Origin: Escherichia phage ST32
DNA length: 53,092 nucleotides
Sequence record: NC_047830.1
Strand: one strand, 5' to 3'
Shown: one piece after another, positions 4,836-22,381 of the stretch
How the letters are laid out: every line of letters starts with the position of its first letter
Numbering within the stretch: the first letter of the stretch is position 1
The notes under the pieces: generated by a model
What the model was told of the DNA's origin: nothing
The model's database searches: none
What the model saw: only the letters and a program-made list of their open reading frames with translations
Position numbers and translations under genes: made by a program

Positions 4836-5077
4836 GCCAGTTTAAGTTAAAAGCAGATTTAATCGAGTTGGCCTCTTATGAAGAGAAGGTCGAATTCATT
4901 CAGGAGCGTTTGGTTGTTAACTATGGTGGTTGGTGGGATATTGCAACAGATGAGCTAGTCACCATTGTTAAAGAAGAATTCGGCATTGAGCTGACCAATA
5001 AGCAATTTCTTGATGATGTTCTCACAGATAAAGTCGTTAAAGAAATTACAACCAATTTCATGACAAGTGTTCAGTAG
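4832..5077 (+). CDS. hypothetical early protein (start uncertain; track ORF begins at TTG 4748)
   Basis: GTG 4832 overlaps the upstream TGA (GTGA) and has an AAGGCGGG RBS; the TTG at 4748 has no spacer after its SD. Confidence 0.4.
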   Translation: MSQFKLKADLIELASYEEKVEFIQERLVVNYGGWWDIATDELVTIVKEEFGIELTNKQFLDDVLTDKVVKEITTNFMTSVQ

Positions 5078-5086
5078 GAGTATTAA

Positions 5087-5260
5087 ATGAACGACCAGCA
5101 ATTCAACACATTCATGCAGCAAATTAATCATCAAGAACTGATGGATGCCATTAAAGGCAAGAAGCCAGTCGAGCGTAAATACCGTAAAATTGATAATTAT
5201 ATGCCAACAATCATTGCATGTGTTGGTGTTGCTATTGTTCTCTACTTCCTGGTGAAATAA
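5087..5260 (+). CDS. small membrane protein (57 aa, C-terminal hydrophobic segment)
   Basis: ORF below the track cutoff, translated by hand; AGGAG RBS. Confidence 0.4.
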   Translation: MNDQQFNTFMQQINHQELMDAIKGKKPVERKYRKIDNYMPTIIACVGVAIVLYFLVK

Positions 5261-5355
5261 TGTCAATTGTTAAGAAATTAGTATTCTGTATTTTAATGTT
5301 CCCTTTGGTGCTGCTCGTTGTGGGCAGCTTCATGTACTTAAACTAAGGTAATTAA

Positions 5356-5667
5356 ATGGCTTCTTTACTCGAATTCTCAAATATTGCAAATGTTGCTAAG
5401 AATTCTATTCCTAAAAATCCAGATGTAGTTGCATACATGCGTGTTGATGTGAGTTTGTTGGCCTTTGTAATGGACCACATCAACCTTGTTGAAGAGCAGT
5501 TGCATCAAGCCAATGAAACAATTGATACTCTTCGTGAACTTCGTACAGCAGAGCAAAGTGCTTACGATGAACTGATGGAGCAGAAGAACAAGCTCCAAGA
5601 ACAGTTGGCAGATGCACTTCAACAAATTGAAGAACTGACGCCAACAGCCAGCTCAGCAACCAAATAA
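5356..5667 (+). CDS. hypothetical protein, predicted coiled coil
   Basis: ORF with AAGG RBS; heptad-like charged sequence. Confidence 0.55.
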   Translation: MASLLEFSNIANVAKNSIPKNPDVVAYMRVDVSLLAFVMDHINLVEEQLHQANETIDTLRELRTAEQSAYDELMEQKNKLQEQLADALQQIEELTPTASSATK

Positions 5668-5682
5668 CAATTGGGAGTTATT

Positions 5683-5943
5683 ATGGCGACTAAGACCGGA
5701 ATGATGATTGTCCCAAGCCGTAATAACTCTTTAAGCGGCTTTACACCATATAAAATCTATGAAGTAATTTCTGGCACTGGTGAAGCAAACCTGTCAGAAG
5801 TTGCTTTGAAGTTGGGCCGTATGGTCCACTCCGAAATCTCCTGTAACGTAGTTGATGACGAAGGTAAAATCCGTTTTGTAACAATGGATTTCTTTCGTGA
5901 ATTTAACCTCAAATCTGAATTGGGAGTTCTGTACCATGAATGA
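5683..5943 (+). CDS. hypothetical protein
   Basis: ATG 5683 preceded by GGGAG; track start is TTG 5671. Confidence 0.5.
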   Translation: MATKTGMMIVPSRNNSLSGFTPYKIYEVISGTGEANLSEVALKLGRMVHSEISCNVVDDEGKIRFVTMDFFREFNLKSELGVLYHE

Positions 5944-6118
5944 GGATGATGTTGTTTGCCCGAAGTGTGGCAGCAATAACGTAGACCATGTAACACACGA
6001 AGCAGTGGGAATGTATGGTCCCGTAGTTCTGGACAGTGCATTCTGTGTAGATTGTGGTTTAAACATTTATCGTGGAAAACTTATAGACAACAGTGGGAAT
6101 ATCCCGCCAAAAGGATAA
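5936..6118 (+). CDS. zinc-ribbon protein (CPKCG...CVDCG)
   Basis: two CxxC pairs; ATG 5936 overlaps upstream stop. Confidence 0.45.
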   Translation: MNEDDVVCPKCGSNNVDHVTHEAVGMYGPVVLDSAFCVDCGLNIYRGKLIDNSGNIPPKG

Positions 6119-6120
6119 TC

Positions 6121-6348
6121 ATGAAATTTAAATGTGTTGCTTCAACCAAAGATTATGTTCCAGTTGGCTTCATCGTTGAAGGTGAAGCTATCTCACCTTT
6201 GGAATTTAAAGTGACTAAATCTGCTGAGAATGTTTCTCCAGCATTTCGTAAAGGTGCTGTAGTTCCTATGAATGGTGCATTCTGGACATGGCAGCGTGAC
6301 CATGAAGCAGAATTTGCAGATATTTGTGAACAAGGTTTATTGCAATGA
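6121..6348 (+). CDS. hypothetical protein, paralog of 6345-6575
   Basis: AAGGA RBS; N-terminus MKFKCVAST.. resembles the next gene's MTKFKCVKST.. Confidence 0.5.
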   Translation: MKFKCVASTKDYVPVGFIVEGEAISPLEFKVTKSAENVSPAFRKGAVVPMNGAFWTWQRDHEAEFADICEQGLLQ

Positions 6349-6575
6349 CAAAGTTTAAATGTGTGAAATCAACCTCCTCATCTGAACATACTCCGAAAGT
6401 TGGGGATGTGATTGAGGGAGAACTTATCCACATACAGAGAAGACACGGAACAGACACTCGAATAGTTATTTCGAATGTTGGAAACCGAATGGCTGCAAAC
6501 GGAAGGCCATATTGGAACATTGGTGAAAAGGTTCCGCTAAAAGGTAGTGTCTGGTCCTGGGAAGAAGTCAAATAA
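6345..6575 (+). CDS. hypothetical protein, paralog of 6121-6348
   Basis: ATGA overlap with upstream gene; shared KFKCV..ST..VG..EGE motif. Confidence 0.5.
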   Translation: MTKFKCVKSTSSSEHTPKVGDVIEGELIHIQRRHGTDTRIVISNVGNRMAANGRPYWNIGEKVPLKGSVWSWEEVK

Positions 6576-7714: not shown

Positions 7715-8197
7715 ATGTACAAATTTAACCCAATGCAAGATGGCATTACGCACATAAATATCTACACTCAAGGAAAGACGCAACTAGGCCGTGCATTGTC
7801 GAATCTATTTGATTGTGAATTTACTGTGCCAGGTTACGGAGATTTTAAGTCTTTGGAGGGATTTTGGTATTACTACCTCACAGGATGTAAGCATGAAGAA
7901 TTAAAATCTCTTGGAGGTTTTGCAGCAAAGAGCTTTGGCAGGAAATTTCCTTTTGACAGAATAGATGAAGAATCTATTGGCCCAGTGGGAGAACAGCGGG
8001 AAGTAATACTTGAAGCAATACGCTGTAAACTGCGACAGAATAAGTGGATTTGTAAGTTGTTGAAAGAATCAGAATTGCCACTGGCACACTACTACGTGCC
8101 TAAAGGAAAAGAGTACTCCATGCAGTATTCAATATCAAAGTTCCAATGGCAGGTCGAAGAATTTGAAAGGTTGAGAAAACTTTTGAAAGGTGTTTGA
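7715..8197 (+). CDS. possible NADAR/YbiA-like domain protein (low-confidence family assignment)
   Basis: GGAGGG RBS; ordered motifs HINIYT, ALSNLF, FKSLEGFWYY, EVILEAIRCKLRQN resemble the YbiA/NADAR fold as I recall it. Confidence 0.55.
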   Translation: MYKFNPMQDGITHINIYTQGKTQLGRALSNLFDCEFTVPGYGDFKSLEGFWYYYLTGCKHEELKSLGGFAAKSFGRKFPFDRIDEESIGPVGEQREVILEAIRCKLRQNKWICKLLKESELPLAHYYVPKGKEYSMQYSISKFQWQVEEFERLRKLLKGV

Positions 8198-8235: not shown

Positions 8236-8251
8236 ATTAGTTGGATGTGAG
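8236..8251 (+). promoter_or_regulatory. conserved phage promoter-like motif (AATTAGTTGGATGTGAG)
   Basis: motif family member upstream of gene 8323. Confidence 0.45.
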
Positions 8252-8322: not shown

Positions 8323-8700
8323 ATGGCACAATATTCAGATGTAAACACTGGCATTATCGGTCCTAACGGCTTCAAGAAAGACCCAAAACATCCTGACATT
8401 CGTGGACGTATTAACGTTGACGGAATCTGGTATTGGGTATCTGGCTGGAACAAGCAAGCAAATGGTAATGAGTTTACCTCACTTGCATTAACCATCATGA
8501 CCCAAGAACAGGTTGACGAAATGATGCGTAAGCGTGAAGAGAAGGCTAAAGCCAAAGCTCAACCTCAAGCCGCTGCCCAACAGCAACAGCAACGCCAGCA
8601 ACCTTCTGCACAACAGCAAGCACCTGCTCAGCAACAGACGCAGAACAGTAACTACAATCCGAACGAGCCGAAAGACTTCGACGACGACATTCCGTTCTAA
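8323..8700 (+). CDS. small protein with Q/A-rich linker and SSB-type acidic C-terminal tip DFDDDIPF
   Basis: last 8 residues identical to the E. coli SSB C-terminal tip; N-terminal about 70 aa is a possible mini OB fold. Confidence 0.65.
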   Translation: MAQYSDVNTGIIGPNGFKKDPKHPDIRGRINVDGIWYWVSGWNKQANGNEFTSLALTIMTQEQVDEMMRKREEKAKAKAQPQAAAQQQQQRQQPSAQQQAPAQQQTQNSNYNPNEPKDFDDDIPF

Positions 8701-8713
8701 TTGGAGATGCCCT

Positions 8714-8833
8714 ATGAAAATTTTATGTTTTGTAGGGCTACATAATTGGGAGATTTCTCATACAAACGATTATGTAACCTTTTGGGTGTGTAAGCACTGT
8801 TCAGCAATGCGTGAGGAATATCATGGCAACTAA
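8714..8833 (+). CDS. possible small Cys-containing protein (39 aa)
   Basis: GGAG RBS 6 nt upstream of ATG 8714; overlaps start of next gene; weak. Confidence 0.3.
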   Translation: MKILCFVGLHNWEISHTNDYVTFWVCKHCSAMREEYHGN

Positions 8834-22109: not shown

Positions 22110-22381
22110 TGAAAACTGTATATTCTATTTTTGATGTACAGGAATCAGAGCACCACATGTTTGCTACCGATTCCGAAGTTCTCGCAAAGGACGCTGTAAT
22201 TGCGTTCCTTGAAAAGATTAAGGACAAAGTTTTCGCTTCGTCCGACCCACAGTCTCAAGCATTTAACGATGAGACATTTAAAAGCCTCCAAACTTTAATT
22301 TCGGCAACGTCTTCATTTGAAGAGCTGTCCGAAGCATTAGTTGGATATGACTTCCGACTTGCTATGTTGCAGGTCGACTAA
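22109..22381 (+). CDS. hypothetical protein
   Basis: ORF, TAATG overlap. Confidence 0.5.
   Translation: MKTVYSIFDVQESEHHMFATDSEVLAKDAVIAFLEKIKDKVFASSDPQSQAFNDETFKSLQTLISATSSFEELSEALVGYDFRLAMLQVD

Follow-up and report, generated by a model that had tools for sequence, protein, structure and literature searches.

[quoted passage not shown] Canonical SSBs (PF00436, TIGR00621) carry this tip on a disordered linker rich in Q, P, G and A that follows an OB core, and they occur in single- and double-domain versions. Among phage proteins, T7 gp2.5 likewise combines an OB-fold core with an acidic C-terminal tail for protein contacts; this tail has Phe as its last residue, but it is adapted to the polymerase/helicase of the phage itself and is not a copy of the host SSB tip. 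The PC4-like SSB of phage T5, whose gene we located as T5.115 (PDB 4BG7), is a small non-OB protein with the topology beta-beta-beta-beta-alpha, presumably dimeric, with an assigned ssDNA-binding role and with neither an SSB-type linker nor an SSB-type tip. (T5.125 and T5.126 (D11) were also considered as the 4BG7 protein and were rejected, the solved structures giving no match.) The PC4-like fold has been described as two repeats of the type beta-beta-beta-beta-alpha with swapped helices and open concave sheets (Janowski & Niessing 2020, PMC7549692). A further comparison is offered by Bas52_0087, an E. coli phage protein of more than 350 aa with two predicted OB folds and a disordered C-terminus that ends in FDDDIPF. 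It is needed to trigger DRT10 defence, with host ExoI/SbcB dosage as a modulator, and its authors propose that it competes at SSB-Ct clients such as SbcB/ExoI (bioRxiv 10.64898/2026.04.29.721553). Bas52_0087 is a precedent for an FDDDIPF tip that is functionally engaged in infection. The DARNA preprint, for its part, deals with the SSBs of T7, T5 and T4 and not with the family described here.

The protein that we have analysed shares its C-terminus with Bas52_0087, and the cores of the two are unrelated. Its gene belongs to a phiEcoM-GJ1-like myovirus (Chaseviridae, Carltongylesvirus), from which a window of 53,092 nt (the whole stretch of DNA that was analysed) was available. The closest relatives in the focal region are Escherichia phages SA91KD and DE15, at 94-96% identity, from which we infer that the host is E. 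coli. The best-covering megablast match, PP952070.1, is entered as 'Staphylococcus phage Pel53' with S. hyicus as its stated host; it is collinear with the focal coliphage and 88% identical to it, and the host label looks doubtful. The reading frame picked out in the first-pass annotation is real and encodes the 125-aa sequence quoted there, down to the terminal DFDDDIPF. Its product is the homologue of phiEcoM-GJ1 gp15 and flopper gp10 and matches PHROG 7364 with an E-value of 1.9e-42 and PHROG 18154 with one of 1.8e-17. The low-complexity linker described in the same annotation was confirmed as well, 27 of its 37 residues being Q, P or A, a composition that resembles that of the E. coli SSB linker. 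The parts of the gene and the other features discussed below are given in Table 1.

Table 1. Features of the focal locus, of the second tail-bearing gene and of family genes in three other phages. Positions in the last three rows refer to the respective phage records.
Feature	Position	Strand	Basis or remark
Ten ATTAGTTGGATGTGAG-like sites	591, 2635, 2899, 3752, 7679, 8236, 12161, 12439, 14578, 22336	all +	at most 3 mismatches
Phage-RNAP-type promoter-like motif ATTAGTTGGATGTGAG	8236..8251	+	72 nt 5' of the focal ATG
CDS, 125-aa SSB-tail-bearing protein	8323..8700	+	ATG start; ORF call and homology
Beta-domain, aa 1-60	8323..8502	+	four-stranded antiparallel beta-meander, conserved family domain; AF2 and family profile
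Charged alpha-helix, aa 61-79, QEQVDEMMRKREEKAKAKA	8503..8559	+	AF2 model
Q/P/A-rich disordered linker, aa 80-116	8560..8670	+	pLDDT below 50; composition
SSB-Ct tip, aa 117-125, KDFDDDIPF	8671..8697	+	last 8 residues as in E. coli SSB
Protein 2, 288 aa	22412..23278	+	candidate additional ssDNA-binding/annealing protein
Family gene, Vibrio phage VP5 (L003)	6001-6477		tandem two-domain version; adjoins PolA/DpoZ, beside or close to PurZ
Family gene, Acinetobacter phage DMU1 (L004)	5992-6294		adjoins PolA/DpoZ, beside or close to PurZ
Family gene, Salmonella phage PMBT28 (L005)	6001-6342		adjoins PolA/DpoZ, beside or close to PurZ

That the tip is exactly that of the host SSB, as had been claimed at the outset, is borne out by the established C-terminus of the E. 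coli protein, by the alignment of the last 8 residues with the SSB tail in PDB 7f2n and by the published E. coli SSB-C7 motif, FDDDIPF (PMC13490951). An alignment of 31 Chaseviridae-type homologues, whose phages infect Escherichia, Yersinia, Erwinia, Pantoea and related hosts, shows no change at D120, I123, P124 or F125 and at least 90% conservation of D118, F119 and D122, whereas the linker is free to vary in both length and sequence; the tip is therefore no chance match. One Chaseviridae-type homologue, P0023, has its tip (...FDESIPF) in an internal position with 15 extra residues after it, which a frameshift, read-through or a sequencing error could explain. A blastn search of 5,426 E. coli genomes with the DNA of the linker and tail remained without a match. 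This gives no indication of a recent capture, and the idea that linker and tail were recently taken from a host ssb gene was rejected on this basis. Two uncharacterised PHROGs, phrog_4477 (profile of 393 positions) and phrog_2544 (profile of 362 positions), match the protein over aa 56-125, in the linker and tail only. They may stand for larger phage proteins with the tip, for instance Bas52_0087, and the host SSB tip would then recur on several unrelated phage cores.

The focal protein thus resembles canonical SSBs in having a disordered linker followed by an acidic tip of the D-D-D-I-P-F type, identical to that of E. coli. It differs from them in its core, where an OB domain of ~110 aa is replaced by a four-stranded beta-meander of ~55-60 aa without detectable likeness to it. 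Several searches bear on this point: (i) Pfam SSB (PF00436) does not match the focal protein, and TIGR00621 scores it at 22.8 bits against a cutoff of 53.95; (ii) a tblastn search with E. coli SSB matched the window only at 8560-8697, and the OB domain of this query matched nowhere in the 53-kb window; (iii) comparison of the family profile with the E. coli OB domain gave a probability of 0.2%; (iv) the NCBIfam SSB models align only to residues 40/42-125, a span that includes the linker and tail, and the sole PDB sequence match of the protein is the tail of an enterobacterial SSB (7f2n); and (v) an N-domain profile search of the PDB gave zero matches, and structure searches with the focal domain did not return any OB-fold SSB. 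The canonical SSB reading was rejected on the strength of points (i) to (iii). It could still be argued from the annotation of the protein in databases as an SSB, and from the weak NCBIfam SSB matches, that this is an ordinary, merely divergent OB-fold SSB, but such a reading is already largely refuted and we regard it as essentially excluded. The protein also has the tail feature of gp2.5-like SSBs; on its core the evidence is indirect, structure searches having given no OB-type matches.

The first-pass annotation had proposed structure prediction and a profile HMM search for SSB families as ways of finding an OB fold in the N-terminal domain, with the proviso that a standard OB fold and ordinary phage SSB homologues would make the protein simply the phage SSB. 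The outcome is divided. AF2 predicts a beta-meander and not an OB fold, and the SSB profiles fell short as described in point (i); the N-domain thus lacks the standard OB fold, and the protein is therefore not 'simply the phage SSB'. On the other hand, many of its phage homologues are already labelled SSB, both in GenBank records and in PHROGs 7364 and 18154, so that annotation had already anticipated the basic idea. This label may derive from the tail alone, and our search of the literature found no report of ssDNA binding by any family member. A phage SSB with a host-type tail is already known and the focal gene is already labelled as one; what appears to be new is a core without an OB fold and a very large family related to DUF736.

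The size of this family became evident in searches with the N-domain alone. Without the tail in the query, the profile found 2,448 representatives of clusters made at 50% identity when the limit was E<=1e-3, and 174 when it was E<=1e-10, and tblastn found 135 phage records that include groups unrelated to Chaseviridae; the tail is therefore not driving the family. All 29 distant relatives match PHROG 7364 and PHROG 18154. A tblastn search of plasmids with a generic family member gave no match, and one match of the deep search, P0058 ('21 repeats', 1,158 aa), was set aside as spurious, being a translated tandem DNA repeat. What defines the family is an architecture in which the domain is joined to an SSB-type tip by a low-complexity linker with a median length of ~35 aa and a high content of Q, P, A, R and G. 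Counting among the best 148 genuine matches of the 2,448 representatives, the tips of 92 conform to the strict pattern [D/E/N/S/G/Q]-[I/V/L/M/A]-P(P)-F, with DDDIPF as the commonest form (n=30), and an acidic tip with a terminal aromatic is present in 118 (80%, or 89% of those that bear a tail); 16 are domain-only or truncated. Tip variants in the family include DDDIPF, DDEIPF, DDDLPF and EDLPF. Of these, DDDLPF belongs to an Acinetobacter phage and EDLPF to Bacteroidota and CPR bins, and DDEIPF is the tip type of alpha-proteobacteria and Halomonas (PMC13490951). As judged from these sequences, family tips vary as bacterial SSB tips do, but the tracking of the host by the tip is suggestive only, because the comparison rests on 16 loci, mostly from Proteobacteria, taken from a narrower N-domain alignment.

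Residues G10, N15, P24, G28 and W42 are invariant across the family, and H23, D25, G34, Y37, W38, S40, F/Y51 and S53 are nearly so; position 18 is K or R in 40 of 41 sequences in the conservation table, and position 44 in 37 of 41. Part of this pattern recurs in DUF736 (PF05284), which has the same motif logic, PD-x-[KR]-G ... G-W-K ... [FY]-x-S-L. No Pfam model reaches its threshold in the family, and the focal protein itself gives no DUF736 match. Six of the 29 distant relatives do so at E<=1 (best E 2.7e-4), and members re-scanned individually score between 13.7 and 19.1 bits, all in the same register, with none reaching the gathering cutoff of 22.1 bits. Because these sub-threshold matches are in register, we consider DUF736 to be a remote relative of the family. 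To our knowledge DUF736 proteins lack an SSB-type tail, and we found no functional literature on DUF736. In the copies from a Saprospiraceae bin (L022, 2762-3043) and a Gracilibacteria bin (L023, 4001-4285), which end in ...IEDLPF, the 'RPDF' loop comes after the hairpin and not before it, an order that is closer to DUF736 and possibly represents a permuted variant.

An AF2 model built with the 31-sequence alignment places strands at residues 8-14, 26-32, 35-46 and 49-58 and a helix at 61-78, followed by a disordered stretch; pLDDT is ~90 over residues 11-60 and falls below 50 in the linker. Members of the Chaseviridae-type subfamily have the helix, and many distant relatives are without it. 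Natural relatives with tandem domains model confidently as one helix-free, closed, 8-stranded up-and-down beta-barrel, for which structure search returned a fold class of avidin, lipocalin-like barrels and the Cap15 nucleotide-receptor barrel. Since the tandem relatives model as a single barrel, each domain would amount to a half-barrel and the single-domain proteins would pair up; the focal protein thus probably joins a second copy in one compact unit. The barrel was modelled for a relative, however, and the extra helix of the focal protein could change the assembly. No ssDNA-binding protein built as an 8-stranded avidin-like barrel is known to us.

The helix raises the question of a relationship with T5.115. 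The focal AF2 model shares its topology, beta-beta-beta-beta-alpha, with the PC4-like fold, and a conserved Trp at the end of beta3 is found in both proteins. An hhalign comparison with T5.115 aligned equivalent elements, but with a probability of 3.7-4.8%, which is not significant, and no significant similarity in sequence or structure to known members of the fold was found; sequence homology to PC4 or to the T5 SSB was rejected for this reason. With regard to the swapped helices and open sheet, the tandem-repeat relative gives a helix-free closed barrel instead, which argues against this feature for the family as a whole; the helix-bearing subfamily may differ. We think it unlikely, though well short of negligible, that the Chaseviridae subfamily with the helix forms a PC4-like, helix-swapped beta-beta-beta-beta-alpha dimer like that of the T5 SSB (4BG7), an arrangement in which ssDNA would still be bound.

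We favor the possibility that the protein is a non-OB phage SSB analogue whose host tip engages host SSB partner proteins, and put its likelihood somewhat above even. Under this model, two beta-domains would pair into one compact unit, the focal protein doing so as a homodimer, and the focal helix may add to oligomerisation. Judging from strand alternation, W38-S40-W42-K44 and F51-S53-A55 should lie on one face of the beta3-beta4 hairpin and V35-Y37-V39 and L54-F56 on the other, and the W38/W42/K44 face would have the aromatic, basic and small-polar make-up that is typical of ssDNA-binding surfaces. The face formed by W38-S40-W42-K44 with F51-S53 would bind ssDNA arising from phage replication and recombination, while the tip would dock into the SSB-Ct pockets of Pol III chi, ExoI/SbcB, RecQ and PriA, and/or phage replisome or recombinase partners might be its docking targets. 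Phage ssDNA would then be handled like DNA coated by host SSB, and host SSB would be out-competed for its partners.

The positions of family genes are consistent with an ssb role, as these neighbourhoods are where phages keep ssb genes, and in this respect too the family resembles canonical SSBs. In VP5, DMU1 and PMBT28, which are 2-aminoadenine (Z-genome) phages, the gene is found next to the polymerase (Table 1). Among other genome-borne copies, that of L008 lies directly 3' of an ERF recombinase and that of L012 directly 5' of PolA; the L020 copy is flanked by a helicase and a D5-type primase-helicase, and the L013 copy has a GPA initiator as its neighbour. Polymerase, helicase and primase genes of their own are present in VP5 and PMBT28, but neither the annotation nor tblastn searches with the E. 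coli OB domain, T7 gp2.5, T5 D11 and protein 2 of the window revealed another SSB in either phage. Co-expression of the PMBT28 homologue with the phage helicase and DpoZ was reported to raise the content of 2-aminoadenine in plasmids (PMC12944874; bioRxiv 10.1101/2025.10.22.683976); as the helicase and the 'SSB' were added together, the effect cannot be assigned to the SSB. A Pam3_Gp34-like protein (PF23977, an uncharacterised family) is encoded directly 5' of the family gene in L012 (3173-3949) and in VP5 (5036-5932), which are unrelated phages, the L012 copy ending in an acidic stretch and an aromatic (...ADEAEY).

Adjacency to the polymerase in several phages could also be indicative of an adaptor, whose beta-domain binds some ligand that is not ssDNA, or else a phage protein (for example the polymerase, the helicase or protein 2), and whose tail makes the connection with host SSB-interacting proteins or with host-SSB-binding sites. 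The fold class of the tandem relatives (avidin, lipocalin-like, Cap15) usually binds ligands or proteins, and the loop N15-K18-H23-P24-D25-G28 is very strongly conserved, both of which would fit this explanation. What speaks against it is that the neighbours differ from phage to phage (PolA, ERF, D5 primase-helicase, GPA), so that no single protein partner co-varies with the family, and that ssDNA is common to all of these contexts. We accordingly give the adaptor a small chance of being correct.

The situation in Chaseviridae is different from that in the Z-genome phages and invites another explanation. Here the gene lies in the early/host-takeover region, away from the module of primase-helicase, PolA and exonuclease, and sits among small early genes near an anti-restriction gene. 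Such a setting outside the replication module would suit a decoy that does not coat DNA at all, but uses multiple host-identical tips to saturate the SSB-Ct pockets of ExoI/SbcB, RecQ, RecJ, PriA, Ung and chi. The exactness and strong conservation of the tip point the same way, as do the near-neutral charge of the N-domain (in the focal beta-domain K+R = 6 vs D+E = 5), the presence of a separate candidate SSB (protein 2) in the replication module and the proposal that another phage protein with the same tip competes for SbcB (bioRxiv 10.64898/2026.04.29.721553). A decoy, however, would not require a domain that is deeply conserved and presents aromatic and basic residues on one face, nor would it be expected to adjoin polymerase or ERF genes in many unrelated phages or to be the sole SSB candidate in VP5 and PMBT28. 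We therefore consider improbable a pure decoy, which early in infection would disable either the nucleases and repair enzymes of the host or its replication restart. The first-pass annotation had left the choice between a minimal SSB and a decoy open; these two remain the leading ideas, and the evidence of ssb positions, of sole candidacy in VP5 and PMBT28 and of the conserved face favours the minimal SSB.

With regard to the second gene, the first-pass annotation correctly read the C-terminus of protein 2 as ...GMPF (...GTGMPF) and went on to suggest that the phage encodes both a bulk SSB and a separate tail-bearing adaptor. In relatives the gene lies between PolA and the 5'-3' exonuclease, and in the window a promoter-like site (22336-22351) is found 61 nt upstream of it. 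Members of the protein 2 family (220-295 aa) vary in their acidic C-terminal stretch, the last residue of which is F, Y or W in every case, and an acidic C-terminal stretch with a terminal aromatic is typical of gp2.5-type SSBs. Protein 2 has no Pfam match, and its profile search of the PDB gave zero matches. Against T7 gp2.5, hhalign gave a probability of 0.2%, and comparisons with T5 D11 and Pam3_Gp34 were likewise negative; protein 2 was thus rejected as a relative of T7 gp2.5, of T5 D11 or of the Pam3_Gp34-like proteins of VP5 and L012. DUF669 matched the family at E 0.005 in only 1 of 30 members, and the NCBIfam model 'replication initiation protein NGO0469' scored 59.6 bits against a cutoff of 75. 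On these sequence features, the idea of two SSBs in one phage is plausible but unproven.

A broader proposal can be made for the family, namely that it constitutes a third structural class of phage ssDNA-binding protein, in which two four-stranded half-barrels form an 8-stranded up-and-down barrel, either as a homodimer or by tandem fusion, and which is evolutionarily tied to DUF736 and acquired its bacterial SSB linker and tip independently, thereby gaining access to the host SSB interactome. We advance this tentatively and think it somewhat more likely to be wrong than right. If it were true, thousands of 'SSB' annotations would hide a new fold, and the protein conserved beside DpoZ in 2-aminoadenine phages would be a novel SSB. 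Whatever the function of the core, a hub identical to that of the host is found on a non-OB core in a family of thousands of phage proteins, for which databases have assumed an SSB function for nearly two decades. Should the core bind ssDNA, it would be a new structural solution for an SSB; should it not, the family would be a widespread mimic of the host SSB tail and a new kind of phage take-over factor. The distinction bears on how to interpret anti-phage systems whose signal is a phage SSB or the activity of ExoI, on the portability of recombineering, which depends on SSB-Ct compatibility, and on the reconstitution of Z-genome replication, where a family member lies between DpoZ and PurZ.

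The description of the focal product as an early protein, made in the first-pass annotation, is loosely right in that a consensus phage-RNAP-type promoter motif precedes its ATG. This motif is identical to 'putative phage promoter 3', annotated 5' of phiEcoM-GJ1 gp15, and sites within three mismatches of ATTAGTTGGATGTGAG occur 10 times in the window compared with 0.69 expected (0 of 100 shuffles reached 10). The focal gene would thus be transcribed from its own phage-specific promoter. The site at 591 lies directly 5' of an RNA polymerase-sized ORF (673-2613). Upstream of the focal gene, a 160-aa product with no Pfam match at E<=1e-3 is encoded at 7715-8197 (+), with a promoter-like site 21 nt 5' of the gene; its relatives are labelled inconsistently, as 'DUF1768 family protein' or as 'DprA-like recombination mediator'. 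Just 3' of the focal gene, the ORF at 8714-8833 (+) encodes a 39-aa homologue of phiEcoM-GJ1 gp16, possibly a small zinc-binding protein to judge from Cys5, Cys26-x-x-Cys29 and several His residues.
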